A stretch of 64,000 nt of DNA from a virus (IMGVR_UViG_3300028048_000039:192001-256000), one strand, 5' to 3'; positions 309-16,979 are shown, counted from the stretch's first letter. The notes: a model not told the origin generated them from the sequence alone. Made by a program: numbers and translations.

Positions 309-342
309 GACGATTAATGTTATTGTTATTACTGTTCCCATG

Positions 343-428: not shown

Positions 429-438
429 ATGTATTTAG

Positions 439-567: not shown

Positions 568-604
568 AAATTAGGTACGCAATTGCGGCCTACAGTATTC
601 GAGA

Positions 605-985: not shown

Positions 986-1053
986 AACACTTTCTTTTTA
1001 ATAAATTATTCTTCTTCTCATAAATATACAAATCTTTTCTTTATTTTCCAAAT

Positions 1054-1290: not shown

Positions 1291-1423
1291 TTCCTTCTTT
1301 TCCTCCTATATTTTAAAAGCGGTATCATCCTCCGAGTGATTGGAAGACGACACCGCCAAATTAACTATCTTCTTCACGAATCTCACTCCTCAAAACCTAT
1401 GTAAATAAACCTCTAGAACCTCA

Positions 1424-1777: not shown

Positions 1778-1871
1778 ATTGTACCTTCCCTTTTTAAGTT
1801 GTTAAACAATAACTGTGGACATTAATAGGTATAACAAATTCCGTGCCAAACTATCTATTTGATGATATTTT

Positions 1872-2066
1872 TTAGTTAGATAAAATACCATCTTTAATAT
1901 CAAGAAGAAGCGTAATAATTAAGCCAATAGGTGCAGTAAAGAAAAATCCCCACCAAAAAAACTTATGTTTTGTTTTCACTATTGTTTCAACAATGGAAAC
2001 AATAAAAATGTGTAGCACACCAAATAAGATAATCAGTTCAAATATACTCTGCTCCGTCATAGTCAT
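1872..2066 (-). CDS. Small membrane protein
   Basis: Two hydrophobic segments, WWGFFF motif. Confidence 0.65.
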   Translation of the reverse strand: MTMTEQSIFELIILFGVLHIFIVSIVETIVKTKHKFFWWGFFFTAPIGLIITLLLDIKDGILSN

Positions 2067-2072
2067 ATTTTT

Positions 2073-2915
2073 TTATTCATCCTCTTCACTCCACACTGCG
2101 GGTTGCTGCTCTGATTGAATCAGATATTTCTCTGCATACCGTATAATCTTTGCCCAATCATTTTCCTTGAAAGCCTTATCAATGTCTCCGCACTCTCCTT
2201 CAGATAAAGACATCTTTCCTTCTGGACGGTTTTCATCCAGATAGTTCATAAACCTGATTGCAAGGTCGTGCTTGGCGGCTTGATAGATTTTTTTACGAGG
2301 CTGTGGACGGAGTGATTTGAGGAAAGAATCAAGTTCTTCTTTTTCGTCAACACTTACTTCTCTTCCAGATGCAATATGTACTATTTCAAGAATGTGATTT
2401 AACTTATTTTTATCCTCTTCATTCCACTCATTCTTTGGCTGGGGTTTGAGGGATTTAAGCCAAGAAGATAATTTTTCTTTGTACTCATTTGACGGATGCA
2501 AATGGCCCGTACAACTTGGAATATCCATTGGAGGAAGTGTATCAGCGTATTTAATCATCTCAAGTATATCCATTAGTTTGTCTTCATCCTCTTCACTCCA
2601 CTCCGACTTCTGTTCTTTCTGCTTTTCAAGTTGCTCTTTGAGATAATAATTCTCTTCAATCAATTCACCAATTCTTGCATTAGATATTTGCAAGGCTTTC
2701 ATCAAATTACCTTGCTTTTCAAGCCAAACAAAAGCCTTATCCTTTTCTTCAGGTGACATATAACCACCAACCTGAATAATGCGAATAATTTTCTTTCTTA
2801 TCCTCTCATCCTCGCTTTCTTTAAGTTCTGGAATAAACAACTCACAAGCTTTCCGTAAGTCACTACCTGACGTACAATTTCTTTTAATGATTTCTATTGC
2901 CTCTTCTTTTGTCAT
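2073..2915 (-). CDS. Hypothetical protein with W(S/N)EED repeats
   Basis: ESEDERIRK and three W(S/N)EED(E/K) motifs; ATG at 2915 preferred over the track start at 2927. Confidence 0.8.
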   Translation of the reverse strand: MTKEEAIEIIKRNCTSGSDLRKACELFIPELKESEDERIRKKIIRIIQVGGYMSPEEKDKAFVWLEKQGNLMKALQISNARIGELIEENYYLKEQLEKQKEQKSEWSEEDEDKLMDILEMIKYADTLPPMDIPSCTGHLHPSNEYKEKLSSWLKSLKPQPKNEWNEEDKNKLNHILEIVHIASGREVSVDEKEELDSFLKSLRPQPRKKIYQAAKHDLAIRFMNYLDENRPEGKMSLSEGECGDIDKAFKENDWAKIIRYAEKYLIQSEQQPAVWSEEDE

Positions 2916-2917
2916 AA

Positions 2918-3040
2918 TTATTTCCAATTTATATTATTATCACTTTTCCTTGTAAAGTTTACAATGTCTTGCATTATTTCCTCTACTTTTTGCTTATCCC
3001 AGATGAAGACTGAGCCTATATAGTTATTAGGGTCTTCCAT
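2918..3040 (-). CDS. Small hypothetical protein (40 aa)
   Basis: Manual translation MEDPNNYIGSVFIWDKQKVEEIMQDIVNFTRKSDNNINWK; stop lies 2 nt before the next ATG. Confidence 0.45.
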   Translation of the reverse strand: MEDPNNYIGSVFIWDKQKVEEIMQDIVNFTRKSDNNINWK

Positions 3041-3099
3041 AATCTTATTCGTTTTTAGTTTAACAATACATTTTATCTATATACAAATATTGTGCAAAA

Positions 3100-3537
3100 C
3101 TATGCAAGTCCTGAAACAAATGTTGAAATTTCTTCAGCCTCATCCTCCGAGAATAACCTTTCAACCTTCTCACCATTCTTGGAGATTGCCTTCCAGACAG
3201 CGTTCACGTGGCGTTTTTCCTCATAGTAGTCATACCCGAACTCCTCAGCAAAGTCCTCAGCGGAGCTACAATTCTTCCAGTCGTAATATTCGCTGATGAT
3301 ACAATCCAACGCCCCGTTAATCATATCTTCAGTCTCGGTGATGCCTCTTTGATAGTTGTAGATGCTATCGTGGAATTTAAAGTCCTCAGCGACTTCTCCT
3401 CTCTTAATAGTTATTGTATAAGTGTAGTGAGTTGGGTCACCAGAATAACCCCTACCGAAAGCTCTCCTTTCCGTTCTCCTCTTATGTGCAGTTACCGAGA
3501 ACTCAATACCATTGTGCTTGTAATCAACTTTCATCAT
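3100..3537 (-). CDS. Hypothetical phage protein (EDFAEEFGYD motif)
   Basis: ORF with AGGAGGT SD and sigma54-type promoter at 3581. Confidence 0.85.
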   Translation of the reverse strand: MMKVDYKHNGIEFSVTAHKRRTERRAFGRGYSGDPTHYTYTITIKRGEVAEDFKFHDSIYNYQRGITETEDMINGALDCIISEYYDWKNCSSAEDFAEEFGYDYYEEKRHVNAVWKAISKNGEKVERLFSEDEAEEISTFVSGLA

Positions 3538-3608
3538 AATTGTACCTCCTTTCTTTAATTGGTTAAACTACTCTCTTGTATGCAAAAACCATTCCAGACT
3601 GATAAATC

Positions 3609-4133
3609 TTAGAGTTTATTTATCATCTTAAGCTGTAAATCCATACCTAACTCGGAGAAGTCAACGAACTTTTGTTCATTTCCAGAGTCATCGGTAATTA
3701 GGATGCTCATCTTCCTGCTCTTCTTATCAATGAAGACCCCTTCTACCTTAGTATAATTCCCGAAGATAATTTCATCTTCCAGACCCTTCACGAACCAGGC
3801 GTAAAAGTATTCATCGTGCTTTCCCTTCCTGATGACCAAGTCAATTATGTAATTAACAAGTGCATCATAACAATAAGTGAAAAGAAAGTCTTGCTCAGTC
3901 ATTACCTCAATATCTGGAAGGAGATGCCCATCGTCATCCAACCCACCATTCTCGCCAAGCTCATTAAGAACAGCCATTTCGTCACAAAAGATTACTGGCG
4001 ATTTATCGCCCCAGACCATTACTTGACCTTTATCAAATATGACATAGTTAAAATCCGCCTTATTGACATATTCCCCGAATGACATTCCCAAGTCAATGAG
4101 ATGTTTAATGAAATAATTCTTCTTAAAATTCAT
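3609..4133 (-). CDS. Hypothetical protein
   Basis: 174-aa ORF starting 3 nt after the upstream stop. Confidence 0.8.
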   Translation of the reverse strand: MNFKKNYFIKHLIDLGMSFGEYVNKADFNYVIFDKGQVMVWGDKSPVIFCDEMAVLNELGENGGLDDDGHLLPDIEVMTEQDFLFTYCYDALVNYIIDLVIRKGKHDEYFYAWFVKGLEDEIIFGNYTKVEGVFIDKKSRKMSILITDDSGNEQKFVDFSELGMDLQLKMINKL

Positions 4134-4136
4134 AGC

Positions 4137-4523
4137 CTATTCCTCCCAATTATAATAATTCAACCACGATATAATCTCGTCCATTACCTCTATGTCAAAT
4201 TTACTAACCCAAGTGGTCTCGTCAGATACATTAGTGAGTGAATGATGATACTCCTCATCAATCCAACATACATCATCATCAAAATCAACCTCAGCGACAT
4301 TGTACCCACAACAAGCATCAAAGTCCTGAAGAACCCAGTAGAGAACTCCGTCCTTGACATATATGCGTTTAATTCTCTCAGCGGTAAGTTCCTCATCATA
4401 GTACCTATAAACTATCTCGGTCTCTATGCTTCCACCATTTCTATTTACATACTCCTTGATGGTATCTACCATCTCCTTGTAGAGCTTCGTGTAAGCATTG
4501 TTAATCTTCGTCTCGTTAATCAT
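4137..4523 (-). CDS. Acidic hypothetical protein
   Basis: ORF with AGGAGGT SD; N-terminus resembles those of 4632-5561 and 10702-11367 (Y/V-V-x-x-x-GG). Confidence 0.85.
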   Translation of the reverse strand: MINETKINNAYTKLYKEMVDTIKEYVNRNGGSIETEIVYRYYDEELTAERIKRIYVKDGVLYWVLQDFDACCGYNVAEVDFDDDVCWIDEEYHHSLTNVSDETTWVSKFDIEVMDEIISWLNYYNWEE

Positions 4524-4631
4524 AATGTACCTCCTTTTTTCTTATTGTTAAACCTAAGAATACTGGGGGAGTGTCTTTTTCTCCCCCATATTCCGTTAAA
4601 CTAGTCCGCAACTGCGTACTACACCCCCATA

Positions 4632-5561
4632 TTAGACCATTAAAGTCTCTCTGTCAGCAACCTCGTCACCTACGAATGTGGAAACATAGACATTTCCCTT
4701 ATTGTCTTCCCATTCAATCCACTCCTTGTGGTCAGCGAGCTTATTAACCCTAATGCCAGTACCATACTTATTAGAGAGAGCTACAAGTCTCTTGAAAGTG
4801 ATGCACTCAGTCATTGTCATTGACTCATTATAATAATCTTTATTATAATAGGTCTCAGTAAGCTCGATGGTGAATTGATACTCTGGGTCAAGCATACCGA
4901 TAACATTACCATCATAGAACTGATAAGTCCTCGCCTCATTCAAGTCCATTGGGTAAGCACCATCGCAACACACCTGCCCCACGATGTTATCCTCATAGAC
5001 AACATACATAAAGACCTCGTCCATATCATCGGTCTCGTCATCGTACTTAATAACGCCTTGCCAGAGTGATACCTCTTTGCCGTTCACTACCACGCTATCA
5101 ACCTTCTCAAAGATGTCAAAGTCCACATTATCCCAACCACACACTTCGTTAAGGTCACGAACCATATCAAGCACCTTTTCCTTCTCATCCACGATTGGAA
5201 TAGGAGTAAAGTCATCGTCCATAATTCCCTCAGCAATGTTCTTAATCATCATCTCATAGATGTCATTGTGATAAGGACGAACCCAAGTACCATCTTCAGT
5301 ATAGACACCCTCGCCCGGAGCATAAGACAGCATCACCTCCAAGTGACCATCACGAACACGGAGAGCAAGAATGCGTCTCTCCTCATAGACTTCCTTCTCA
5401 CGAAGATAAACCACACTTGTAAATTCAGCGTACTCGCCATTTGGATTATCAACCCTGATAGCACCGCCCCACTCATTTACATAATTAACGATTGCATTAA
5501 CGAGATTGTCATAACCTCTTTCAACGATTGTCATTGCGTAATTGATAAGATTTTTTCCCAT
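4632..5561 (-). CDS. Acidic hypothetical protein
   Basis: 309-aa ORF, SD and sigma54-type promoter at 5614. Confidence 0.85.
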   Translation of the reverse strand: MGKNLINYAMTIVERGYDNLVNAIVNYVNEWGGAIRVDNPNGEYAEFTSVVYLREKEVYEERRILALRVRDGHLEVMLSYAPGEGVYTEDGTWVRPYHNDIYEMMIKNIAEGIMDDDFTPIPIVDEKEKVLDMVRDLNEVCGWDNVDFDIFEKVDSVVVNGKEVSLWQGVIKYDDETDDMDEVFMYVVYEDNIVGQVCCDGAYPMDLNEARTYQFYDGNVIGMLDPEYQFTIELTETYYNKDYYNESMTMTECITFKRLVALSNKYGTGIRVNKLADHKEWIEWEDNKGNVYVSTFVGDEVADRETLMV

Positions 5562-5635
5562 AATATACCTCCTTTTTTAAAATGTTAATAAATCAGTTTC
5601 CATAAATACTACTAACAAGTTCCGTGCCAAACTTC

Positions 5636-5812
5636 TTAGATTATGTAATTTTCTTCAAGTTTTTTGATAAATTCTCTTTCATCCATTTCATAGACCTCGT
5701 CTGCCGGAATGTCCAATGTTCCGATAACTCTTTCATTTTCAGCATCAATTACGATACTTCCACCATTTTCGTTACTTCTAAAGATGTAACCGCCTCTTTC
5801 AAATTCTTCCAT
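5636..5812 (-). CDS. Small acidic protein (58 aa)
   Basis: Manual translation MEEFERGGYIFRSNENGGSIVIDAENERVIGTLDIPADEVYEMDEREFIKKLEENYII; AGGAGGT SD; below the track cutoff. Confidence 0.8.
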   Translation of the reverse strand: MEEFERGGYIFRSNENGGSIVIDAENERVIGTLDIPADEVYEMDEREFIKKLEENYII

Positions 5813-5871
5813 AATGTACCTCCTATTTTAAATTGTTCTCTATTATAATATACTCTCTTTTTCCGAAAATC

Positions 5872-6162
5872 TTACACTTCCAAGTCAAAAAGTTTATCTT
5901 TATCATCATATTGACGAATTAACTCTATGTCGTGAGTTTCTTCCATCCAGATTCTCCTCTTGTCATCAACATTGTCAAAAAGACCACAATCAGTACAAGC
6001 TTCTGCCAAGTTGTCAGTCGTTAATTTTCCATCACTTGAGAAGACCACGAAGGAATCTACTACTGGGTCTTCATCGGATTTAATCATCCCCAACCAAGTG
6101 TGAAAGGAGTTCTCATCCTTTCCTATGTAAATTATGTAAAAACGATTTTTCCAAATGCACAT
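5872..6162 (-). CDS. Hypothetical protein
   Basis: ORF with GGAGGTG SD and sigma54-type promoter at 6203. Confidence 0.8.
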   Translation of the reverse strand: MCIWKNRFYIIYIGKDENSFHTWLGMIKSDEDPVVDSFVVFSSDGKLTTDNLAEACTDCGLFDNVDDKRRIWMEETHDIELIRQYDDKDKLFDLEV

Positions 6163-6225
6163 ATCTCACCTCCTCTTTTAATTGTTCTACACTAATAGTC
6201 CTAACAAAGACCGTGCCAGAATTTA

Positions 6226-6265
6226 AAAAATAAGGGGGAAGAATGAAAAAAAATTCATCTTCCCC
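6226..6265 (-). terminator. Intrinsic terminator (family copies also at about 8135-8173, 11431-11469, 16658-16713)
   Basis: GGGGA(A/G)GATG...TTC(T)CCCC hairpin followed by TTATTTTT on the minus strand. Confidence 0.6.
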
Positions 6266-6292
6266 GCAAAAATCATAATTAGTCTTGGAGTA

Positions 6293-6463
6293 TTACTCGG
6301 CAACAGCGGTGGTATCAACGGCAACGCTATCAACAGCAACAGCGGTGGTGTCTTCAGCAACCTGCTCAAGACCCTGCTCCTCAACTACCTCTGCCTCATT
6401 GTTCTTGCAAGATACAAGTGCAAGGGCAAATACTACCAAGACTGCAAAAAGAATCTTCTTCAT
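6293..6463 (-). CDS. Small Bacteroidota-type lipoprotein (56 aa)
   Basis: Manual translation MKKILFAVLVVFALALVSCKNNEAEVVEEQGLEQVAEDTTAVAVDSVAVDTTAVAE: lipobox LVSC, three D-(S/T)-(T/V) motifs. Confidence 0.85.
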   Translation of the reverse strand: MKKILFAVLVVFALALVSCKNNEAEVVEEQGLEQVAEDTTAVAVDSVAVDTTAVAE

Positions 6464-6503
6464 AGCAAACTTTATTTTTAATAGTTATTATTATTATTTC
6501 TGG

Positions 6504-6535
6504 CAAATATACAAAAATGTTTTCAAAAAAACAAA
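6504..6535 (-). promoter_or_regulatory. Bacteroidota primary-sigma promoter TTTG-N20-TATATTTG (others at 16025-16056, 35083-35113, 37766-37797, 47825-47856)
   Basis: Matches the -33 TTTG / -7 TAnnTTTG consensus with 19-20 nt spacing in all five cases, each upstream of a minus-strand gene. Confidence 0.8.
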
Positions 6536-6668
6536 TCTACCGGAAAAGTCTTACTCATCGTCCAGACTATTATTAAATAGTTCGTACAAGATATACAACA
6601 CAAAAAAAGTACATCCAACCGCACAAACTGATAACAATATCTTTAATAATAAGTAAAGCATCTTTCAT

Positions 6669-6974
6669 TTATTCTTTTATTATTTTTGGGTCATCATTAT
6701 AGTTCTCAAGCACCCACTCTAAAAGCAACTTTCTGTTTGTGGAATCAAGTTCACCATAAAACTTATTCATTCTCGCATATCCATTGTAATCGTATAGAAT
6801 ATAATTCCACTTCCCTATGATATGGTCAAGACTACAAGCCCACTTCACCTCCATAATAAAGGTTGGAAGATAGTCTTGCCTCTTCTCTCCATACATAGTC
6901 GTCCAGTCATAATAGTCGGACTTGTAATTCATACTGAAATAAAACCACTTGTTAATTGCGTTAATGTTGTTCAT
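6669..6974 (-). CDS. Hypothetical protein
   Basis: ORF with SD and sigma54-type promoter at 7025. Confidence 0.8.
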   Translation of the reverse strand: MNNINAINKWFYFSMNYKSDYYDWTTMYGEKRQDYLPTFIMEVKWACSLDHIIGKWNYILYDYNGYARMNKFYGELDSTNRKLLLEWVLENYNDDPKIIKE

Positions 6975-7084
6975 AAATACCTCCTTCTTTAAAAAAGTAA
7001 AAATATGTTTTCTACCTTCTTACTATCAACTATCGTGCCAGAATGCTCCGGAATGCCGGTTTGGGTGAAAAAAGTTTTTCAATG

Positions 7085-7173
7085 CCTTTTTTTTTAAAAA
7101 AGGTGTGACGGAGACTATACTTTAGCTATTGATGTACTACTCTGACTCCGGTTTAACCCGAAACCAAACGGCA
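7085..7173 (-). ncRNA. Structured repeat element, copy 1 (candidate sRNA)
   Basis: Homologous to 10290-10381; GGAG..CTCC stem, inner TAG/CTA pair, CC-Tn-An-GG palindrome. Confidence 0.5.
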
Positions 7174-7203
7174 TCCATTTGTGCCGGTATTTCTACCTAT
7201 CTA

Positions 7204-7233
7204 CTAACCCGGTGACCTTGCTCTCATTTCCAT
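7204..7233 (-). CDS. Minigene MEMRARSPG
   Basis: Full sigma54 promoter, leader and AAGGAGGT SD in front of a 9-codon ORF ending TAG TAG. Confidence 0.35.
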   Translation of the reverse strand: MEMRARSPG

Positions 7234-7300
7234 TGAGACCTCCTTCTTTAAAGTTAAACAATCAGTGAACACTAATAGTATATGCGAATATCGTGCCAGA

Positions 7301-7804
7301 CTACTCATTTCCGGAATCTTTTTTCCAAAATTTTTCCTCCTTGATGCCAACCCTATACCACCAAGACTCATCGTCAGCACCTATAACCCAATCAGTTTCC
7401 GGATTAACATCTGGAACATTCATCGTCTCTGCCATATCAGCAATAAGACTACAAGCACACTCAAAAGCTTCCTCTCCAGACTTGCAAGGATAAACCTCCG
7501 AGTAATAGTACCCATCAGTACCCATAGTTTCCGCAATTACGAAGGTAACCTTCTCATCAGTATCCTCATCCTCCTCTCTCTTGAGAACATTGAGAACATA
7601 ATCCCAAGCATCGTTGATTAAGTCCTCCAACTCATCTTCATAGTAATTCTCTGCATAAACTGCCAACGATACGCCATCTTTGCAGATTTCGCAAGTGTAA
7701 CTGCCATCGTGGCAGTAATCAGTAATCTTAATTTCCTTGCCTACTCTTTTAAGGTCTTTATTTGCTTCAGCAAGTGTATTCTCCCAATCGTTTCTTCTAT
7801 TCAT
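7301..7804 (-). CDS. Acidic hypothetical protein
   Basis: Start moved to ATG 7804 (MNRRND...), which has the AGGAGGT SD. Confidence 0.85.
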   Translation of the reverse strand: MNRRNDWENTLAEANKDLKRVGKEIKITDYCHDGSYTCEICKDGVSLAVYAENYYEDELEDLINDAWDYVLNVLKREEDEDTDEKVTFVIAETMGTDGYYYSEVYPCKSGEEAFECACSLIADMAETMNVPDVNPETDWVIGADDESWWYRVGIKEEKFWKKDSGNE

Positions 7805-7820
7805 ATTATACCTCCTATTT

Positions 7821-8057
7821 TTAATCAAGATTAAAATTCTCCTTGCAAAACTCTTTGCCATCAAAGATTACTGAAAACATTTCGCTGGAATTTGCGAAAC
7901 AATAATAGTCCAAGTCCTCCAATGATAGACCATTTTCCTTTGCGATTTCCTCCAGACGCTTGTCAATGAAAGCGATTTGTTCCGGAGTATAATCGTCTTC
8001 AAAATCGTCAATAAGGCTTGCTCTAATGCTTTGGTAAGTAATTTTAGTATCTTCCAT
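7821..8057 (-). CDS. Small acidic protein
   Basis: SD and sigma54-type promoter at 8111. Confidence 0.85.
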   Translation of the reverse strand: MEDTKITYQSIRASLIDDFEDDYTPEQIAFIDKRLEEIAKENGLSLEDLDYYCFANSSEMFSVIFDGKEFCKENFNLD

Positions 8058-8196
8058 ATTATACCTCCTTTTTTAAGTGTTAGACAATAAGTGTTTCCAT
8101 ATATACTAATAACAAGTTCCGTGCCAGACTTTCAAAAAATAAGGGGGAGAACAAAATTTTTTTCATCCTCCCCACAAACCAAAACACACAAACAAA

Positions 8197-8442
8197 CTAT
8201 GAAACCCTCTTCTTATAATATCTGTCAGCAGAATAAGTATCGCTTCCATCTTCCTCCGTAACCTCAGCATCCTCAAGGGCAAAACCCATCTCACTCATTA
8301 GGTAGTCACAATACAAGTGTTCGTGCTTCCAATCACCCCACTCAATCACAACAAGAACTCCGTCATCGCCATCTGGAACTACATCCTCAAAATAAAGGTC
8401 ACTCTTCCTTAACTTCTCCCTGACTTTATCAACATCTATCAT
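8197..8442 (-). CDS. Small acidic protein (WGDWKHEH motif)
   Basis: SD, operator motif and sigma54-type promoter at 8508. Confidence 0.85.
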   Translation of the reverse strand: MIDVDKVREKLRKSDLYFEDVVPDGDDGVLVVIEWGDWKHEHLYCDYLMSEMGFALEDAEVTEEDGSDTYSADRYYKKRVS

Positions 8443-8528
8443 AGATACCTCCTTTTTTAATAGTTAATAATCTATGTCCGCAACTGCGTACTACACATCC
8501 CTTAATAAGCAACAATTGTTCCAGAATG

Positions 8529-8870
8529 TTAATCTTCGTCAGTTTCTACTCCAACTTCGTTGTAATCAAAGATGTCTTCCTTGTTTTCCTGCATCCATTC
8601 AGCGATGTCCACAAGTGCATCAGTGCCTATGTTAGCATTATCCCACCAATCGCTTCCATCACCACTACTGGCAAAGAAGATAAGTCTTCCATTCTTCTTT
8701 AGCTCAACACTATCAAGTGTGTATATGAAATAGTCATCTTCATTATCCCTAACGATTGGGCAATCATCCAAGTAGCTGACCTCAAGCGTGTCCTTACCGG
8801 ACTCCTTCATTATATTGGTGATTATCTCTATTGCTTCGTTCTCTATTTCTGCAAGTTTTTCTCTCATCAT
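8529..8870 (-). CDS. Acidic hypothetical protein
   Basis: ORF with AGGAGGT SD. Confidence 0.85.
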   Translation of the reverse strand: MMREKLAEIENEAIEIITNIMKESGKDTLEVSYLDDCPIVRDNEDDYFIYTLDSVELKKNGRLIFFASSGDGSDWWDNANIGTDALVDIAEWMQENKEDIFDYNEVGVETDED

Positions 8871-8950
8871 ATTGTACCTCCTTTTTTATAGTGTTAATAA
8901 AATCAGTTATCAGTTTCCGGAAGATGCCGGTGCTTATTCCGGCACTCTCG

Positions 8951-9214
8951 CTACATTTCCTCGTCCTCCGCAATCTCCTTCTCAATTCTCTTCAAGATGT
9001 TCATTGCTTCAGTCTTCGCCATTGCCCTGACCATTTGAGCAACATTTTTACCGAAAGCATCACTCCTGAACTCTTCTACCTCTTTGCTGTACTCTATTAT
9101 GAGCATCGCAAGTTTAAGGTCGTCAATGTTCTTGTTGCTGAACTCTGCAACCTTCTCATCTACTTTGTCCTTTATATCTGCCATAAGGACTCCGGCAACA
9201 TTTAATCCAATCAT
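8951..9214 (-). CDS. Helical hypothetical protein
   Basis: SD and sigma54-type promoter at 9277. Confidence 0.8.
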   Translation of the reverse strand: MIGLNVAGVLMADIKDKVDEKVAEFSNKNIDDLKLAMLIIEYSKEVEEFRSDAFGKNVAQMVRAMAKTEAMNILKRIEKEIAEDEEM

Positions 9215-9316
9215 ATTGTACCTCCTTTTTTAAGTTGTTAGTAAAATCAGTTAATTCGTGTGGACATTAACATACTTGCGAATATCGTGCCAAACTCTTC
9301 ATTTCTGGAAAAAATT

Positions 9317-9577
9317 TTACATTTCTCTCTCAAAAATTTTGCAGATAGTGTGATTTTCACAATAATAGCCGTCCTGATAAATTTCAAAACCTCCGTTCTT
9401 GTACTCATCAATTTTGATTTCATCCGCATCAAAATTCTCTACATAAGTTGTTGTTTCATTTTCCAATGTGGAAGCAACTTCTGCAAGTGCTTCTTCCTTT
9501 GTCTTGAAGACATCAACCTTTAAATTTTCGTCAGTTATATCCCAGACCGATTGTGTTACTACTACAAATACTTTCAT
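9317..9577 (-). CDS. Small acidic protein
   Basis: ORF with AGGAGGT SD. Confidence 0.85.
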   Translation of the reverse strand: MKVFVVVTQSVWDITDENLKVDVFKTKEEALAEVASTLENETTTYVENFDADEIKIDEYKNGGFEIYQDGYYCENHTICKIFEREM

Positions 9578-9598
9578 ATTATACCTCCTTTTTAAGTG

Positions 9599-10120
9599 TT
9601 AATCTACTACTCCATTACCATAATAGAGATTGAAACTTCTTCCTTCTGAAATAAGACATCTCCAAAGATAATAATCTTCTTCCATTTGTTCATCCTGAAA
9701 TTTATGATAACTACCATTACAATAGCGTAACCTATTATTTTCCCTATACATTTTCTCGCACACCTCATCAAATGTACCTTCAAGTTCATAAGTCCTGATA
9801 GTATCCTCCTTATGCGGATAGACGTGATGCCTTACAACGCCATCTTTGTCGGCATATTCCCATACATCGTGTTCATAGTGGCTTTCACAGACTACTTTTA
9901 TTTTTTCGTTCCACTTCTTAACTATGCGAATAATGTTATCAATTTGCTTACAAGCAAGGTCAATAGCATAGTCATCGCTTCTTAAATAAGTCCAACGACT
10001 TTTTTCATACTTGAGTTCCTTTGTAACATAACCAACAAAGTCCTTTTCGTGATACAACGGCATTTTGTCAATGTGATAGAACGCCATCAAATACTTTAAT
10101 TCTTGTTTTGTGTAACTCAT
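9599..10120 (-). CDS. Hypothetical phage protein (LRYCNG...YYGNGVVD)
   Basis: SD, ECF-like promoter at 10166. Confidence 0.85.
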   Translation of the reverse strand: MSYTKQELKYLMAFYHIDKMPLYHEKDFVGYVTKELKYEKSRWTYLRSDDYAIDLACKQIDNIIRIVKKWNEKIKVVCESHYEHDVWEYADKDGVVRHHVYPHKEDTIRTYELEGTFDEVCEKMYRENNRLRYCNGSYHKFQDEQMEEDYYLWRCLISEGRSFNLYYGNGVVD

Positions 10121-10289
10121 AATGTACCTCCTTTTTTAGATGTTAGACAATCGTGTTCATTAAGATATACCTGAGAACTCCGGAAATCTTACAAGGGAAG
10201 GTTTTTTTCAACCCTCCACTCTTCTATATTCAAATTCTATGCCACACTTTCAAAATTCCGGCATTTCCGGCAAAAAAATTTATCAATCT

Positions 10290-10381
10290 CCTTTTTTTTA
10301 AAAAAAGGCGTGACGGAGACTATACTTCAGCGATTTACTTACTGCTTGGTCTCCGGTTTAACCCAGAAACAAAATCCGGCA
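10290..10381 (-). ncRNA. Structured repeat element, copy 2 (candidate sRNA)
   Basis: Begins at the predicted +1 of sigma54 promoter 10394, with no SD or ORF; GGAGAC/GTCTCC stem, inner CAG/CTG pair. Confidence 0.55.
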
Positions 10382-10433
10382 CACTAATACTATTGCAAAT
10401 AGTGTGCCAGACTACTCATTTCCGGAAATTTTT

Positions 10434-10700
10434 TTAATAACACTTCACAACTCTCTCCGGCATTACCTTCTTGGGAAGCTTCCCCTCCAGCGTTGCCCAC
10501 TTCACATCGTGGTCTTCAACATATTCCGGAATAACCCAATCAGTAAATATACCATCGCAGTTTGCTTTCTTCCCATACTTAATCTCGGCAATCTTCGCCT
10601 TGACTATCGGTTTCGTGTCAATCCTCATTGAAAGGGTAAAGCAAACATAATCGCCCTCTTTCAACTCAATACCAAACTTGTCACATACCTTCCTGTCCAT
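10434..10700 (-). CDS. Small SH3/KOW-like beta protein
   Basis: DKFGIELKEGDYV motif; coupled to the upstream gene. Confidence 0.75.
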   Translation of the reverse strand: MDRKVCDKFGIELKEGDYVCFTLSMRIDTKPIVKAKIAEIKYGKKANCDGIFTDWVIPEYVEDHDVKWATLEGKLPKKVMPERVVKCY

Positions 10701-10701
10701 A

Positions 10702-11367
10702 TTATTTCTCCTCCAATGCTTTAAGAATACTCTTTAAGTCCTCAAGTGAAAAGTCAGCAAGTTCGTGCCAATTCTTCTCATTTGTCATAATGTCATCATC
10801 TCCGTAGATGTGGAAATAGATAATGCCTTCTCCCTCCATTTGAAACGCAAGGTCAACCTCCGGTAACTCAAGACTGCTCAAACCACAAGCACCCTCTTCG
10901 CCAATAACGGCAGAAAGTTTCATTGGATGCTCCTCGTCAGTATCCATCAGTATAGCAGAAATCTTTTTCCTGACATCCTCCCACTCTTCAAGGCCATCGT
11001 ACTCATCAATGCTATCAAGGATGGAGATGATAGTATCTGCCTTGTAAGTGAGACCATCGCTACCATCCAAGCAATACCAATTATCCTCGTCAGCAATCAT
11101 TTCCTTTTTCGTTGGGGTTTCAAGATAAGTCCTCATAATAGGAAGGAAATAGCAAAGTATGTCATTATCTACAATGCGAAGGGCATAGCAATAATACTCC
11201 TCCAATCTATCTTCCTCATTGATTGCATAACCATAGATTGTATCAAAGTTATGTTCAGGACTTGTATTCAGGAAACCTCCGTTCCTGATGACTACTTCCT
11301 TAATCGCAACGTAAGCATCGTTAAGGGATTTAAAAATTTCCTTTCTCGTCTTTTCAATTTTGTTCAT
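10702..11367 (-). CDS. Acidic hypothetical protein
   Basis: SD and sigma54-type promoter at 11407. Confidence 0.85.
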   Translation of the reverse strand: MNKIEKTRKEIFKSLNDAYVAIKEVVIRNGGFLNTSPEHNFDTIYGYAINEEDRLEEYYCYALRIVDNDILCYFLPIMRTYLETPTKKEMIADEDNWYCLDGSDGLTYKADTIISILDSIDEYDGLEEWEDVRKKISAILMDTDEEHPMKLSAVIGEEGACGLSSLELPEVDLAFQMEGEGIIYFHIYGDDDIMTNEKNWHELADFSLEDLKSILKALEEK

Positions 11368-11508
11368 AATGTACCTCCTTTTTTAATGATTATCTACTCT
11401 ACTACTAACAAATATCGTTCCAAAAACAACAAAAAAGTGGGGAAGACCAAAAATTTTTTTAATCTCCCCACAATTCGTCTAACACTGGAAACCTCCGGAA
11501 ACCATTGA

Positions 11509-11862
11509 TTACTTGACTATCACTTCATAATTCCTTACCAAGTAGTCAGCAAACCTCTTCATTGTGTCAGTATCAAACTCGTCAATGTCAGTTTCAACCT
11601 CTTCCTCGTCGCCCAATGTGATATCTCCATCCTCATAATAGATGATGTCAAGTTTCCTCCTCTCATTGTACTCGTTCCCCTCGCAATCCTCAACTTCAAC
11701 ATCATACCGGAAACTACCACCCAAGTCAGTCGCATCAATGGTAAAGATACCTTCTGCATCTTCCTCAATGCCCAATGCACTACGGAGCAATTCAATCTCT
11801 CTCTTAATGAAGCCTTTAAGGTCTTCTCTCGCCTTTGTGATAATCGTGTCAGTGTAATTCAT
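11509..11862 (-). CDS. Highly acidic hypothetical protein
   Basis: ORF with SD. Confidence 0.85.
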   Translation of the reverse strand: MNYTDTIITKAREDLKGFIKREIELLRSALGIEEDAEGIFTIDATDLGGSFRYDVEVEDCEGNEYNERRKLDIIYYEDGDITLGDEEEVETDIDEFDTDTMKRFADYLVRNYEVIVK

Positions 11863-11880
11863 AATGTACCTCCTTTCTCT

Positions 11881-12306
11881 TTAATCGTTAGTAATATCGT
11901 AGCAACCAATAATGCCATCCACATCCCCATAGAAGAAACGAACATAAAAAGTCCTCCCCTTGTAAGTGATGTCATAGCACATCTTCATAATGTACTCGTT
12001 AGTACCATCATCGCAACCATCGTCTATTCCGCAATCAACATACACACACTTGTCAATAGCATCCTTTGCCATAAGACTATCAATACAAGCGGAAATCCCT
12101 CTATCGTCATACACATAGTCATCAAGGATGTCCATCAACTCTCTCTTCACTTTCTCGCCATCATCCTCATCTTTCTCGCCATTGAGCAAGTCAAGACACT
12201 CGCCCAACTTCTCAAGGACATCTTCCTCTGCATCAGTAAGACCTTCCTTACTAATAAGGTCGTGATAGATACCGCTAATTCTTTTCAATAAGTCTTTTTT
12301 TATCAT
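11881..12306 (-). CDS. Acidic hypothetical protein
   Basis: SD and sigma54-type promoter at 12358. Confidence 0.85.
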   Translation of the reverse strand: MIKKDLLKRISGIYHDLISKEGLTDAEEDVLEKLGECLDLLNGEKDEDDGEKVKRELMDILDDYVYDDRGISACIDSLMAKDAIDKCVYVDCGIDDGCDDGTNEYIMKMCYDITYKGRTFYVRFFYGDVDGIIGCYDITND

Positions 12307-12434
12307 AATGTACCTCCTTTTTTAGATGTTAGTAATCAAGTGAACTACTTTTTAGTATGCAAATACTTCGCCAAACTTGGTATTTCCGGAAACTTTTTTG
12401 CAAAATATACCGCAATTGCGTACTACTGAACTCG

Positions 12435-12716
12435 TTAGAAGAAATGTATCTCCGCAAAGTCGTTGTCCTTGTCCATCTCCTCCAAGATAGTCTTGCAGAC
12501 CTCCCCGAACTCTTCGTCCTCAAGATGACCTTCCAAGAACTCTCTTCCTAACTCCATATAACCTTCATCCTCCGAGAGCCAATAATCTCCGTTGCTGTCA
12601 TCTCCCACTTCTTTAACCCAAGAAACGAACTCGTCACAATCTCCGTAACTTGATACCGGAACTTTGTCGCTATACTCTACCTTGTAAGTCTTGCAGATGT
12701 GTAAACCATAACTCAT
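12435..12716 (-). CDS. Small acidic protein
   Basis: SD, ECF-like promoter at 12773. Confidence 0.85.
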   Translation of the reverse strand: MSYGLHICKTYKVEYSDKVPVSSYGDCDEFVSWVKEVGDDSNGDYWLSEDEGYMELGREFLEGHLEDEEFGEVCKTILEEMDKDNDFAEIHFF

Positions 12717-12807
12717 ATTATACCTCCTTTTTTAATAGTGTTGAACAATCAAGTGAACTCTCTCTCTTCATTTATACTCCGGAACTCCGGAAACCTTACA
12801 TCAACCT

Positions 12808-12843
12808 TTAAGTTTTTTCATCTTTGTTGTAACTCTTCTTCAT
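12808..12843 (-). CDS. Minigene MKKSYNKDEKT
   Basis: Two promoters, operator, leader and AAGGAGGT SD in front of an 11-codon ORF. Confidence 0.35.
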   Translation of the reverse strand: MKKSYNKDEKT

Positions 12844-13013
12844 ATAGACCTCCTTCTTTAAAGTGTTAGACAAATAAGTGTGAACTATGCCGCAACTGCG
12901 TACTACTGATAACCTCTTAACAAATATCGTTCCGGAATTTAAAATCTCCCAAACTTTTTTTCGTTCCACCAATGATATATACTCATCCTCTCCGGAAATC
13001 TTGCATCATACCT

Positions 13014-13535
13014 TCAGGTTTCTTCATCTTTCTCATCATCATATGGAGTTTCCTCGTTGATGGAAACCTTCGCAGCTTCCTCTGCTTCCTCCTCATTATT
13101 ATAGATAAAGTCACTCTCATCGTACAAGCATCCATCCTCTCCATACACCTCATACCCATACTTCTTCTCATTGTTAGTGATAGTGATGCCGCACTCTTTG
13201 TACTCGGTGGTCTTTACCACGTTCTTGGAGTCATAGATAGTTTCATCATCTCCCTCATACGTAGTGTAAAGATATCCATACATCCCATCAATGTAGCTCT
13301 CAATGGTCACAAGCGTATCGCCTTTCTTCCATACCTGGAAGTTGATGTCATCGGTATCAATTGGGATGAAATGCTCCTTCTCAAAGTATTCCTTAATCTT
13401 CTCATAGCTTTCCAGTTCATAGTAAGCGTGAAGTGCCTCCTGGTTATAGCTGCATCTACTATCAAGACCACCACCTGCTGGTTCAGACTCTTCGGAAATA
13501 TAAGGTTTTCCATACCTATCAACAAATCTACTCAT
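13014..13535 (-). CDS. Highly acidic hypothetical protein
   Basis: SD and perfect sigma54 consensus TTGGCACGGATTTTGCA at 13590. Confidence 0.85.
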   Translation of the reverse strand: MSRFVDRYGKPYISEESEPAGGGLDSRCSYNQEALHAYYELESYEKIKEYFEKEHFIPIDTDDINFQVWKKGDTLVTIESYIDGMYGYLYTTYEGDDETIYDSKNVVKTTEYKECGITITNNEKKYGYEVYGEDGCLYDESDFIYNNEEEAEEAAKVSINEETPYDDEKDEET

Positions 13536-13626
13536 ATGATACCTCCTTTTTTAATGGGTTAAACAATTAAGTGTGGACAATAATATACTTGCAAAATCCG
13601 TGCCAAACTGATAAAAAAAGGGAAGA

Positions 13627-14751
13627 TTAAGTTTTCATCTTCCCCCCTTTCTGCCCATTACACTTTCTACAAATCATCTGCAAATTCTCAAGAATTGTCT
13701 TTCCACCTCGCCACCAAGGAATTATGTGGTCTCCCTCCATCTCTTCAAAGGTATGATGCTCTCCGCATATTGGACAAACCCCCTCTTGTTTCTCATAAGC
13801 CGTTCTCTTGTCCACATTGCTAAATGTCCTCTTGGAAAGCTTCCTTGCAATGTCCTCGCTCTCATTGGAAAGCACGTACTCATAAATGCCCTTCTTGTCA
13901 GTAACTTCCTCGTTCTCCATCAATGAGTGAATTTTCTCCTCCAAGGTCTCGCAATCATACTCATTGCCCTTATAAGTGTCATAGAGCTTTCCCCAGTTTA
14001 AGCCGCACATCTCCTTTCTATAATACTTTCCGGTATTAAACGTCCCCTCAATCCAAGAAATCACATTGTTGAAGTAATCCCAAAGCTCACTGGCATCCTC
14101 ATCGTGCTGATGCTCTGCCATATAGTCAGCAATCTTTCCATCACTTATCCAGGAAAGCGCAGTCTCAAGGTACTCTTGCCTAATCGGACTTCCCTTTACA
14201 AACCTATTACCAATCTTATAGGCCACACAATTGGTCTTGCTGAACTTCTTCTTTGCATCGGTAAGCCACTTTCCGGTATAGTTGATATTAAGCAGCTCCT
14301 GGTCAGTAAGCTTTTCCCCGGCAATGTTAATCGTCCTAAACCAATCCAACCTCTCCTTGTCATTGCCATTGCAGACGTAGATATCCACTGGATAAGATAG
14401 AATTCTCTCCTGCTCAACGTCAGTCAAGTTATGGAAGTACATAGGAACACCCTCAACCTCAACCGAGAAGTCCCCGGAAACGTACTGGCAAAAGGAAATA
14501 GTCCTCTGCTGTCCATCAAGGACTTCATAAGTGCCATCCTCATTTTCCGCCCAGTACATAACGTTAAGCGGAAACCCCTTAAGGATAGTTTCAATCACTG
14601 CTGCCCTTTGCTTGTCCTTATAAACGAACTCCCTTTGATATGCCGGACGGATGTTAAGCTTTCCACTGAAGCCGGAAACTCCACCCTCGGCATTGTCAAC
14701 GTAGTCCTTGCTAATCTCCTTGATTGTGTAATTCTTGTGTTCTATTCTCAT
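13627..14751 (-). CDS. DUF262 (GmrSD-like) + HNH endonuclease
   Basis: RPAYQREFVY, LDGQQR and FRTIN DUF262 motifs; C-terminal CPIC...DHIIPW..GG...NLQMICRKCN..K HNH domain. Confidence 0.9.
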   Translation of the reverse strand: MRIEHKNYTIKEISKDYVDNAEGGVSGFSGKLNIRPAYQREFVYKDKQRAAVIETILKGFPLNVMYWAENEDGTYEVLDGQQRTISFCQYVSGDFSVEVEGVPMYFHNLTDVEQERILSYPVDIYVCNGNDKERLDWFRTINIAGEKLTDQELLNINYTGKWLTDAKKKFSKTNCVAYKIGNRFVKGSPIRQEYLETALSWISDGKIADYMAEHQHDEDASELWDYFNNVISWIEGTFNTGKYYRKEMCGLNWGKLYDTYKGNEYDCETLEEKIHSLMENEEVTDKKGIYEYVLSNESEDIARKLSKRTFSNVDKRTAYEKQEGVCPICGEHHTFEEMEGDHIIPWWRGGKTILENLQMICRKCNGQKGGKMKT

Positions 14752-14854
14752 AATGTACCTCCTACTCTTATTGGGTTAATACTTTATCGTCTATTGACGT
14801 GTATGCAAATTATGTGCCAAACTTTACTTTCTGCAGAAAATTTTAGTCTAATAG

Positions 14855-15097
14855 TACACAATTTGAAATAGTAGGGTTAGATAGGTATGTAGAAGATAAC
14901 CCTCATTATGGACATAGATTTACTATTAGCGGAAAAGAAACTTACGCAAGAATTTTAATTAAGCGGAAAGTTTCTTAATAAGTATTCTTGCATAGACACC
15001 TTTATTATTTACATAGAACTTTACTCTGCCATCGTTTCCATTTATAAGTCCTTCTCCTCTCGCACCACTCATAATTCCCACTATTTCAAATTGTGTA
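14855..15097. mobile_element. Invertible segment (243 bp) bounded by 18-bp perfect inverted repeats
   Basis: TACACAATTTGAAATAGT at 14855-14872 and its exact reverse complement at 15080-15097; both read TQFEIV in frame. Confidence 0.85.
14856..14978 (+). other. Silent alternative C-terminus of the methyltransferase
   Basis: Translates as TQFEIVGLDRYVEDNPHYGHRFTISGKETYARILIKRKVS*, homologous to the expressed TQFEIVG...YARILIKKLSA*; no start codon of its own. Confidence 0.88.
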
Positions 15098-15960
15098 GAA
15101 ATGCTGTTAATCTCTATATGAATAGTACCATCACTCCACAAATATTTCAACCCCGTAATCGGAATACCGATAACTCCGTTATAGTCCATAGGAAATTTCT
15201 CCATCCTACCACACTCAATAGCATCGTAATTATCGTACTTTGGAAAATCTTTCTCGTTGTACTTCTTGTAAGTGTCAAGTGTTTCTCTTTTATTATCATT
15301 TGAAACATTTGTGTACCAACAAATAGAATTTACTTGCTTGTATATTCCATCTGCCTTTGTAATATACCTCTCATTTTCAATAGGATAATTTGCGGGCATT
15401 TTGAAGTATGGCATTTTGCCTGTGAATAAAGTTCTGCCAAGCCAAAGTTGTCCGTTCTTTATAAGTGGAAATATCTCTTTGTAGGTAATTGCGTTGTTAT
15501 TCCCCAAGATAATAAATTTCTTGTTGTACTTCATAAGTTGAGCAACATACTCCCTGAACAAGCTAAATGGTGGGTTGGTAACTACCACGTCAGCTTCCTT
15601 AAGATAAGCAATGCACTCCTCACTCCTGAAGTCCCCATTACCATTAAGATAGGTAACCTTTACCTCTTCATCATCCACTCTCCTATTGCCGTTCTTGTCC
15701 CCCTCATATACCAATACCACACCACGTCCATCTGCCTTATATCCAGTGCTGATGAGCTTCTTCAACCCAAGGTGCTCAAAGTTAAGGGAGAAGTATTTAA
15801 AGAAGTTAGACTCCCTGGCATCATCACAATTACAATAAACCACCTTCCCCCTGAAGAAGTCCTTGTAATGCACCATCTCTTTCTCAATATCTGACAATTG
15901 AGTGTAGAATTCGTCTTGCTTTGCTGTCTTTGCCTTGTGTAAATTAGAGTTCTTTGCCAT
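14959..15960 (-). CDS. Adenine-specific DNA methyltransferase, EcoRI-methylase family
   Basis: DEFYT, VYCNCDD, GDFRSEEC, catalytic TNPPFSLF, PKYDNYDAI motifs. Confidence 0.9.
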   Translation of the reverse strand: MAKNSNLHKAKTAKQDEFYTQLSDIEKEMVHYKDFFRGKVVYCNCDDARESNFFKYFSLNFEHLGLKKLISTGYKADGRGVVLVYEGDKNGNRRVDDEEVKVTYLNGNGDFRSEECIAYLKEADVVVTNPPFSLFREYVAQLMKYNKKFIILGNNNAITYKEIFPLIKNGQLWLGRTLFTGKMPYFKMPANYPIENERYITKADGIYKQVNSICWYTNVSNDNKRETLDTYKKYNEKDFPKYDNYDAIECGRMEKFPMDYNGVIGIPITGLKYLWSDGTIHIEINSISTQFEIVGIMSGARGEGLINGNDGRVKFYVNNKGVYARILIKKLSA

Positions 15961-16208
15961 AATGTACCTCCTTTTTTAAAGTGTTAAACATAATGATACC
16001 TCACAAAAACCATACCGCACTCATCAAATATATAGAAAAAAATTGAAAAAAGCAAAAAAATCAACCCCTCAATCCCACCAGGAAACCGGAAACCCGGTTA
16101 ATAATAGCCGCATTTGCGTACTACACCAGGTTTCGGAAAGCGGCAGTCCCAACTGACAAATTGTCCACTCTTTCAGCCAGGAACCGCCGGAAACCTGGAT
16201 GCTACTCG

Positions 16209-16586
16209 TTACTTGATGGCGGCAATTGCCTTATAAACCTCTTCCACCGCCTTGTTGACCTGCTCAATTGTCTCATAGACCTTCGCAATGACCTCGTCAG
16301 CTACCTCGTCCCTCTCGTCTTCCTCCTCTTCCTCGTCATCATAGCCAACCTCATAGTCATACCAGTCCACGTAGCCAAGCCACTTCGCAATCTCGTCCTT
16401 TTCGTACCACAAGATGTCGTTCACTTCCTCTTCAGTGAGCGCTTCTACGCCCTCTCTATCCTCGATGTACTCCTCCACCTCATCGCAGTCGCCCTTTTCC
16501 TTGAGGACTTCAAGTGTGTCAAGTCCGCCACCCCAAGCCGGGAATTCATTGAGGGACACTTCCTCATACTTCTTAATTTCTACCAT
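16209..16586 (-). CDS. Highly acidic phage protein (FPAWGGG...NDILW)
   Basis: ORF with SD; first protein gene of the leftward block. Confidence 0.85.
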   Translation of the reverse strand: MVEIKKYEEVSLNEFPAWGGGLDTLEVLKEKGDCDEVEEYIEDREGVEALTEEEVNDILWYEKDEIAKWLGYVDWYDYEVGYDDEEEEEDERDEVADEVIAKVYETIEQVNKAVEEVYKAIAAIK

Positions 16587-16787
16587 AATTACCTCCTTCT
16601 TTAAAATTAGACAATCTAGTTAACTATGTACACTTGCATGCATGCATAAGTACTTTCAAAAATAAGGGGATGAACCATGGACTGCTAACTACCAAACCCC
16701 ACAATTCATCCCCACACACTTACATGGTAACAAAAACCATGCCAAACACTAAAAAAGGATATATAAACCTCAAAAAAAAAATAATGC

Positions 16788-16939
16788 ATGTTCATGAAGC
16801 TATTTCCTGGACTACCATGGGAGCTAGTTACTCTCTCACTTCATCTACTTCGCAAGCCAACATTGGCCCCTAGCTCCCGGTGTCACTCCCCTCTCGCTTT
16901 CTCCTCCTTTAACACTAAAAATGGAAAATACATGAACAC
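16788..16939 (-). ncRNA. Candidate structured RNA (about 150 nt)
   Basis: Starts at the predicted +1 of sigma54 promoter 16951; nested stems GUGUUCAUG/CAUGAACAU, UAUUUUCC/GGAAAUA, GGGAGCUAG/CUAGCUCCC, GCCAA/UUGGC. Confidence 0.5.
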
Positions 16940-16979
16940 ACTAATACTCTTGCAAAGACCATGCCAAACTTTACGGAAA

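Follow-up and report, generated by a model that had tools for sequence, protein, structure and literature searches.

A co-oriented array of sigma-54-type promoter sites in a large phage, probably read by the RpoN holoenzyme of the host

Known systems and comparison with the present locus

Sigma-54 (RpoN) is structurally unrelated to sigma70, and its promoters give no transcription without the action of an ATP-driven activator. The promoter sets of large phages include the early promoters and PeSL cassettes of T4, the T4 late TATAAATA, and the early, middle and late motifs of phiKZ. The sigma-54 consensus, in the form that goes back to Barrios et al. 1999, is reportedly YTGGCACGrNNNTTGCW. The subject of this work is an array of about 20 sites of this -24/-12 type in a virus record of IMG/VR (IMGVR_UViG_3300028048_000039; 344,580 bp, estimated completeness 93%), bases 192001–256000 of which form the stretch of 64,000 nucleotides analysed here, hereafter called the window; positions are those of the window unless the genome is named. 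The array shares with the T4 and phiKZ sets the use of one conserved promoter per small accessory gene and of modular terminator-promoter-leader cassettes, whereas those sets are read by host sigma70, phage sigma-like factors or phage polymerases and none of them is of the -24/-12 type.

The nearest described case is the virulent Pseudomonas phage YuA, which has no sigma-54 of its own and the development of which, by the secondary accounts, depends on host sigma-54 (Ceyssens et al. 2008, cited in PMC5053324; PMC10914365), with the start of one sigma-54-like promoter mapped by ONT-cappable-seq (PMC10914365). The present phage likewise encodes no sigma-54, whereas YuA is a 58-kb siphovirus of a proteobacterium with one such promoter region (PMC10914365), not a jumbo phage of Bacteroidota with a block-wide array. 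T7 Gp2, T7 Ocr and Xp10 P7 also act on the sigma-54 route, as phage inhibitors of the holoenzyme (PMC3778932, PMC7064336, PMC5053324); they block it, whereas the present phage appears to use it. A phage sigma-54 promoter array was not found in the literature searched, and the view of the original prediction that no phage programme of this scale has been described is thus upheld within that literature, although the concept itself has a precedent in YuA.

The promoter array

The sites are here regarded as working promoters read by the sigma-54 holoenzyme of the host, a reading to which we give a probability of roughly 0.6. They have the form TGG(C/A)AY-N5-T(T/C)G(C/T/A) and occupy the minus strand, on which the genes of a leftward block of some 21 kb, with a phage sigma70-family gene at its end, are encoded; the stretch first flagged is the right-hand three quarters of this block, which holds about 30 small genes, mostly ORFans (open reading frame (ORF) lists and our own gene calls). 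The relaxed form TGG(C/A)AY-N5-T(T/C)G yields 17 sites in 1833–16966, all on the minus strand, intergenic and co-oriented (the count includes one TGGCGA site, found with TGG-N9-TGC), and the spacing from TGG to T(T/C)G is invariant in 17 of 17 (TGG-N9-T(T/C)G). Every site aims at the next minus-strand gene, the ATG of which lies some 45–80 nucleotides (nt) downstream in most cases. The literal pattern TGGCACG-N4-TTGYW has five matches in the window against 0 in 100 shuffles, while TGGCAC-N5-TTGC with one mismatch allowed has 13 against a shuffle mean of 2.3 (maximum 7), 12 of the 13 being on the minus strand at 1834–16966. Position -12 is C at nine window sites, T at six and A at two.

These counts bear out the original prediction as to orientation, coding strand, intergenic placement, invariant spacing and the departure of about half of the sites from C at -12; the number of sites in the 15 kb is 17, not the 18 first given, and the pattern then proposed, TGGCACG-N4-TTG(C/T)W, exceeds the shuffles but is fitted literally by five sites only. 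The right-hand 47 kb, in which no such sites had been noticed, contains one relaxed match, TGGCATTCAAGTTGTA (42904–42917, minus strand), which is probably due to chance because it lies inside a plus-strand gene of 1349 amino acids (aa) and is without the flanking signature. The whole genome has 21 members of the family, 20 on the minus strand at genome 188188–208966 (6% of the genome) and an isolated one at genome 102604 on the plus strand; three of these lie to the left of the window, at genome 190603, 190672 and 188188, the last an ambiguous one that overlaps a sigmaA-type box. Information content is highest at AGTyTGGCACGG and TTTG, and about 12 nt past the -12 position comes a weaker, semi-conserved TA(A/G)TGT, the place of which shifts by 1 nt between sites.

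In common with bacterial RpoN promoters, the sites have the same two-box sequence, fixed spacing and placement upstream of genes, and G is invariant at -24/-25 and -13; the phage differs in having about 20 copies in 21 kb, no RpoN or activator gene, no distant enhancer seen and C at -12 in only about half of the copies. The assignment to the RpoN consensus stands: the sites fit the -24/-12 architecture and promoter placement, and diverged relatives keep them together as a unit. Such sites might instead bind the holoenzyme chiefly to titrate host sigma-54 as decoys or to insulate cassettes as roadblocks, since stable closed complexes of sigma-54 holoenzyme are known to form without an activator and a replicating genome with no activator gene would present many copies. 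However, all of the sites face the next gene at a promoter-like distance, often after the terminator of the prior gene, and they are the sole promoter-like element for most units, so that this explanation is the least probable of those weighed here and is held to be very improbable.

Searches for a phage-encoded reader

The original prediction found neither RpoN nor an activator with a GAFTGA loop in the window, and neither was found in the rest of the 93%-complete genome; its proposal of a phage sigma-54 or activator gene located outside the window finds no support. In whole-genome searches with hidden Markov models (HMMs), RpoN had no credible match (Sigma54_DBD, PF04552; Sigma54_CBD, PF04963; full-length rpoN, TIGR02395), and the sole match to Sigma54_activat (PF00158) is a 916-aa ClpB-like chaperone; in a six-frame scan of the phage, neither an RpoN box nor a plausible protein with a GAFTGA loop turned up. 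Three candidates were rejected. A weak TIGR02395 match at genome 153.5 kb (9.7 bits, 243-aa protein) is noise, having no RpoN features and a level which controls reach in RpoN-less genomes; the 916-aa protein has the domain set of ClpB and no GAFTGA loop; and the nearest solved relatives of a 370-aa AAA+ protein (36642–37754) are proteasomal Rpt ATPases.

The beta and beta-prime subunits of RNA polymerase have no match in the phage (PF00562 and PF00623, controls positive), and neither has T7-like RNA polymerase (PF00940, the control for which was silent); no DxDGD-type motif occurs in a long ORF of the phage, a scan which a very divergent polymerase could escape. Because no sigma-54, activator or RNA polymerase was found in the phage, it probably borrows a transcription route of the host that is rarely seen in phages. 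Among related records, the RpoN DNA-binding domain is present in none of the 13 searched (two of them complete), and in the five searched with PF00158 the only matches are an 850-aa open frame in two, classed as ClpB-like, with no activator found. Since there is no RpoN or activator in the phage and no RpoN in the 13 related records, use of a host activator is the best reading.

The block could also be self-contained, with no gating by a host signal, if the phage possessed an unrecognisable activator, bypass factor or sigma-54 analogue of its own. Block proteins are mostly ORFans, no host-type enhancer element is seen in the phage, and a phage-specific 10-bp palindrome, TTTCCGGAAA with its variants, adjoins the -24 box at 7–8 sites, its end lying 9–11 nt before the TGG. 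Against such a factor, no activator-clade AAA+ protein was detected, the pair of window AAA+ proteins that were examined being ClpB-like and proteasome-Rpt-like, and an RpoN box is likewise missing from the phage. We know of no such unrecognised activator or bypass factor in any system, and little credence is given to this explanation. The palindrome itself, which has the counterpart TTCCGAAAAGGAA at the equivalent position in the relative L014, is a candidate regulator site on sequence grounds.

Comparison with host sigma-54 promoters

This uncultured rumen phage has a Bacteroidota host, probably a member of the Bacteroidales. Its other promoter classes, found by k-mer enrichment upstream of genes outside the block, include the class TTTG-N~20-TTTTGTATATTTG, with about 43 intergenic sites, the majority of them plus-strand and within 80–185 kb; TTTG ... 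TAnnTTTG is the established -33/-7 promoter type of Bacteroidota sigmaA, and a Bacteroidota host is assigned on this basis. Bacteroidota largely avoid Shine-Dalgarno sites, and the scarcity of Shine-Dalgarno sequences outside the block fits this host.

A scan of species genomes for TTGGCACG-N4-TTGCATATA gave matches in many phyla, rumen Bacteroidales included. Five Bacteroidales genomes contain 2–4 strict motifs per 2.3–3 Mb, located upstream of htpG, grpE, thioredoxin (trx), clpB, groES-groEL, lon, secA and efflux genes, the last of which also have a GTGTCCGAAA-N-CGGACAC enhancer. This placement agrees with the sigma-54 control of chaperone genes predicted for Bacteroidota in phylum-wide regulons (PMC12316311). 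One RpoN each is encoded in 31 of 31 sampled Prevotellaceae genomes, and 1–5 true activators in 12 of 13. The motif occurs in 27 of 29 Prevotellaceae groES genes, 41–108 nt before the ATG, and across Bacteroidales TGGCAY-N5-nTGn is found in 19 of 20 groES genes for which the start was located (8 automatically, 11 by eye).

Host and phage sites share several details. The -12 letter is C in 52% and T in 48% of host groES sites, and C in 53%, T in 32% and A in 16% of phage sites; box position 6 is C in 74% of both; box position 7 is G in 63% and A in 33% of host groES sites against 68% and 32% in the phage; and the TCGC variant of the -12 box is common to both. Because the host groES sites show the same C/T mix, a T at -12 in roughly every second site is normal for the host group. 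The promoters of Bacteroidales chaperone and quality-control genes (groES-groEL, htpG, grpE, clpB, lon) thus have in common with the phage sites the core, the TT before TGGCAC, the C/T mix and the TCGC variant, and the TTGCATATA extension is common to these promoters and to phage relatives.

Upstream of host groES, TGTCA/TGACA repeats occur at a density of 1.78 per 100 nt, where the background is 0.30 (about 6-fold), and in the relative G005 they number 1.6 against 0.55 (about 3-fold); this phage has none of them and carries the TTTCCGGAAA palindromes instead. Bacteroidales groES upstream regions (L161–L189, L302–L330) show a very degenerate -12 box with several TGTCA/TGACA repeats directly upstream, and the repeats look like an operator or enhancer of the Bacteroidales chaperone regulon. 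Direct counts thus place promoters of the sigma-54 type, in which the -12 box is degenerate and TGTCA repeats occur, at groES and other chaperone genes of Bacteroidales. The TTTCCGGAAA palindrome was tried as a host enhancer and rejected for the sampled genomes: TTCCRGAA-N10-TGGCAY has about 105 matches against about 50 for the reversed-pattern control in 401 Bacteroidales genomes; of 30 palindrome matches fetched, one has a sigma-54-like box (apparently by chance), and recurrent matches lie within coding sequence.

Conservation in relatives

A single-protein scan of viral contigs for close relatives gave nothing, and relatives were found by an alignment-based scan with the neighbouring sigma gene as marker, namely Logan contigs of 49% and 31% identity and IMG/VR contigs of 28–36%. 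In nearly all relatives (31–49% identity), co-oriented TGGCAC(G)-N4-TTG(C/T)A arrays precede small genes and the sigma gene, while the 28%-identity locus L021 has no such sites within the 20 kb fetched. The flanks change in the relatives, a TATA extension replacing AGTAT, and the IMG/VR relatives have no Shine-Dalgarno sequence at all. Strict sites on the main strand of the record number 15 in G001 (14 in an 18-kb block), 14 in G002, 22 in G005, 22 in G439, 36 in G440, 16 in G441 and 11 in G445, against 0–3 for a reversed-pattern control in the relatives' records; a single block of 13–28 kb holds all strict sites of G005, G439, G440 and G441 and ten of those in G445. The array of G440 (IMG/VR 3300021399_000099) is the densest among the records examined, with its 36 strict sites on one strand within 28 kb (30027–57624) and a few divergent ones at 28.0–29.6 kb.

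The smaller phages G442 and G443, which are without the sigma gene, still have such promoters and upstream repeats. In L290 and L297 (IMG/VR 3300031976_000208 and 3300030095_000822), loci of smaller phages without the sigma gene, three tandem sites lie in 200 bp and are interleaved with GAGAATGATTATCA-type inverted repeats resembling an enhancer array. At about 49.4–49.6 kb of the complete 210-kb record G446 (L231), four sites are arranged as two divergent pairs in 250 bp, and the repeat TTGTCAAGAAAAATCGACA adjoins the -24 box before both plus-strand sites.

The motif might instead be read by the phage sigma70-family factor (283 aa, genome 189619–190470, at the downstream end of the block), perhaps with a co-factor, its likeness to sigma-54 promoters being convergent. 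Two motif copies precede the sigma gene here and in relatives, and the array ends with the sigma ortholog in G001 and G439, which is not so in G440; the phage also has two sigma70-family genes (69 kb and 189.6–190.5 kb of the genome) and a larger number of promoter classes than could be accounted for by host sigmaA alone. Nevertheless, the boxes are about 11 bp apart centre to centre (5 bp edge to edge), while regions 4 and 2 of sigma70 need a 16–19 bp spacer, and a -35/-10 reading as GTTTGG-N17-TATTAG fits some sites of this phage, yet not those of relatives, which show no conservation there. Despite divergence of the sigma proteins to 31–49% identity, the core has kept the universal and host sigma-54 consensus unchanged; the best matches of the phage sigma are RpoD/SigA-type models, its gene has a sigmaA-type promoter of its own, and G442 and G443 carry the promoters in the absence of the gene. 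This explanation is accordingly considered doubtful, though less so than an unrecognised factor of the phage.

Weighing of the host sigma-54 reading

Host sigma-54 is put first because the spacing of the two boxes, one helical turn, suits sigma-54 but not the sigma70 family, the core stays fixed while the phage sigma diverges, and host-specific quirks of the motif are shared. Several points weigh against it. No activator was found for the sites, and six of the 17 window sites have a weak -24 or -12 box. TGTCA repeats number 0 in 16 x 100 nt upstream of phage sites (background 0.24 per 100 nt), the TTTCCGGAAA palindrome was not found beside sigma-54-type boxes in the 401 Bacteroidales genomes, and the intergenic gaps are short for a classical distant enhancer. 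The host is placed only to group level (Bacteroidota, probably Bacteroidales); the match of letter frequencies between phage and host groES sites is partly constrained, because both sets were collected with similar regular expressions; and a phage sigma70-family gene stands at the array end in several lineages.

By the proposed mechanism, the host sigma-54 holoenzyme would bind the -24/-12 sites of about 20 small accessory genes, the transcript start region would lie about 12 nt downstream of the -12 box, and the open complex would form by means of a host enhancer-binding protein or an unrecognised phage factor, a dependence that is inferred because no RpoN, GAFTGA-type activator or RNA polymerase was found in the phage. 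A shutdown of host sigmaA by the phage would leave this route open, since sigma-54 and sigma70 are structurally unrelated. It is conceivable, though on the whole unlikely, that the sites define a gene class fired by host sigma-54 without a canonical phage activator, either through a host enhancer-binding protein activated by infection stress or through activator-independent opening, with -12 boxes weakened by T or A at about half of the sites and a phage factor bound at TTTCCGGAAA beside the -24 box. The former would amount to a stress-gated viral programme, and the latter to a new way of starting sigma-54 transcription.

A virus with 20–36 genes behind such promoters would have handed its timing to a host signal or would have an unknown way of opening promoters. 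Such arrays are shared by many huge phages that infect gut and rumen Bacteroidota and would define a transcription strategy so far known from one Pseudomonas phage. They may also offer compact, portable and tightly off promoters for Bacteroidales genetics.

Anatomy of the transcription units

Each unit is ordered as the terminator of the prior gene or a palindrome, AGTyTGGCAC(G)-N4-TTG(C/T), a leader, a strong Shine-Dalgarno sequence and ATG (Table 1). The conserved leader downstream of the sites reads ATTGTTTAAC ... AAAAAGGAGGTAcAtTATG. AGGAGGT occurs 47 times in the genome, 23 of them on the minus strand of the block, and a Shine-Dalgarno-like sequence precedes 23 of the 33 genes of the block and 54 of the 353 in the rest of the genome. 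Strong Shine-Dalgarno leaders (AAAAAGGAGGTAcAtTATG after ATTGTTTAAC) are nearly restricted to genes behind sigma-54-type sites (600–16600, minus strand; genome 188–209 kb), and for most Shine-Dalgarno-led block genes no other promoter is seen. The few block genes behind sigmaA-type promoters have no Shine-Dalgarno sequence, so that promoter class and translation signal go together in this phage; the -24/-12 class is thereby coupled to Shine-Dalgarno-led translation, despite the host phylum largely avoiding such sites.

Sites 10394 and 16729 head short RNAs predicted from the sequence to end in a hairpin plus U-run. The region 16590–16728 (minus strand) contains a 16-bp hairpin followed by UUAUUUUU, and 10250–10393 (minus strand) encodes a roughly 85-nt RNA with a U7 run after it. 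After each short RNA comes the Shine-Dalgarno-led gene of the next unit, with another sigma-54-type site at 10229 in the second case. The two structured RNAs may be attenuators or small RNAs. At 7204–7282 (minus strand), site 7283 is followed by the full leader and Shine-Dalgarno sequence, yet only by a 9-codon ORF (MEMRARSPG), and this unit may represent either a leader peptide or the remnant of a cassette.

Table 1. Features of the block and its surroundings. Positions are window coordinates unless marked as genome; sites are named in the text by the start of the 16-mer. aa, amino acids.
Feature	Position	Strand	Sequence	Context
Leftward block	1..16966, past left window edge to ~genome 188.2 kb	-		terminator-promoter-leader-gene units
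Site	1833..1848	-	TGGCACGGAATTTGTT	upstream of 117-aa gene 1424-1777
Weaker site	3581..3596	-	TGGAATGGTTTTTGCA	upstream of 145-aa gene 3100-3537
Site	5614..5629	-	TGGCACGGAACTTGTT	upstream of 309-aa gene 4632-5561
Site	6203..6218	-	TGGCACGGTCTTTGTT	upstream of 96-aa gene 5872-6162
Site, A at -12	7025..7040	-	TGGCACGATAGTTGAT	upstream of 101-aa gene 6669-6974
Site, TCGC form of -12 box	7283..7298	-	TGGCACGATATTCGCA	then Shine-Dalgarno-led 9-codon mini-ORF or short RNA
Site	8111..8126	-	TGGCACGGAACTTGTT	upstream of 78-aa gene 7821-8057; terminator hairpin directly upstream
Weaker site	8508..8523	-	TGGAACAATTGTTGCT	upstream of 81-aa gene 8197-8442
Site	9277..9292	-	TGGCACGATATTCGCA	TTTCCAGAAA precedes; upstream of 87-aa gene 8951-9214
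Site	10229..10244	-	TGGCATAGAATTTGAA	GCCGGAAATGCCGGAA precedes; upstream of 173-aa gene 9599-10120
Site	10394..10409	-	TGGCACACTATTTGCA	TTTCCGGAAA precedes; heads predicted ~85-nt RNA ending in U-run, no ORF
Weaker site	11407..11422	-	TGGAACGATATTTGTT	upstream of 221-aa gene 10702-11367; terminator hairpin just upstream
Weaker site	12358..12373	-	TGGCGAAGTATTTGCA	TTTCCGGAAA precedes; upstream of 141-aa gene 11881-12306
Canonical site	13590..13605	-	TGGCACGGATTTTGCA	upstream of 173-aa gene 13014-13535
Site	14804..14819	-	TGGCACATAATTTGCA	upstream of GmrSD_N + HNH nuclease gene
Site	16729..16744	-	TGGCATGGTTTTTGTT	transcript would open with strong hairpin + U-run, then 125-aa gene 16209-16586
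Site, first of block	16951..16966	-	TGGCATGGTCTTTGCA	divergent junction with plus-strand gene 16984-17412
Palindrome copies	9302-9311, 10419-10428, 12383-12392; genome 190695-190704		TTTCCGGAAA; variants TTCCAGAA, TTCTGCAGAA	
SigmaA-type -7 box	1022..1030	-	TGTATATTT	before 126-aa gene 605-985, no Shine-Dalgarno; contrast class within block
Second sigmaA-type -7 box in block	6505..6513	-		before 56-aa gene 6293-6463, no Shine-Dalgarno
GmrSD_N + HNH nuclease gene	13627-14751	-		behind site 14804
EcoRI-type adenine methyltransferase gene	14959..15960	-		inside block; PF13651, E 3.8e-111
ClpB-like two-ring AAA+ chaperone	45057..47807	-		AAA_2, AAA_lid_9, ClpB_D2-small, Clp_N; phrog_4871

Other promoter classes and neighbouring genes

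A third promoter class, CTATTTAT ((A)ACTATTTAT), has 67 intergenic sites across structural regions and is probably late. Pairing of the TTTG of the sites, as a Bacteroidota -33 box, with a -7 box was rejected, as no TAnnTTTG lies at the right distance, and a reading as T4 MotA boxes was rejected for wrong spacing; a canonical sigma70 promoter scan is uninformative for a Bacteroidota host. An Rfam search gave tRNA-Leu as the only match. The annotated content of the block (PHROGs, Pfam) comprises the EcoRI-type methylase and the GmrSD/HNH nuclease and otherwise almost nothing, while its left part, outside the window, encodes the 283-aa sigma70-family factor and a DUF3310 protein. Upstream of this sigma gene (genome 189619–190685; L004:1003–1854, minus strand) are two tandem sigma-54-type sites followed by the sigmaA-type box TTGACA-N17-TATATT (TTTTGTATATTA), an arrangement which suggests dual control of a next-stage sigma.

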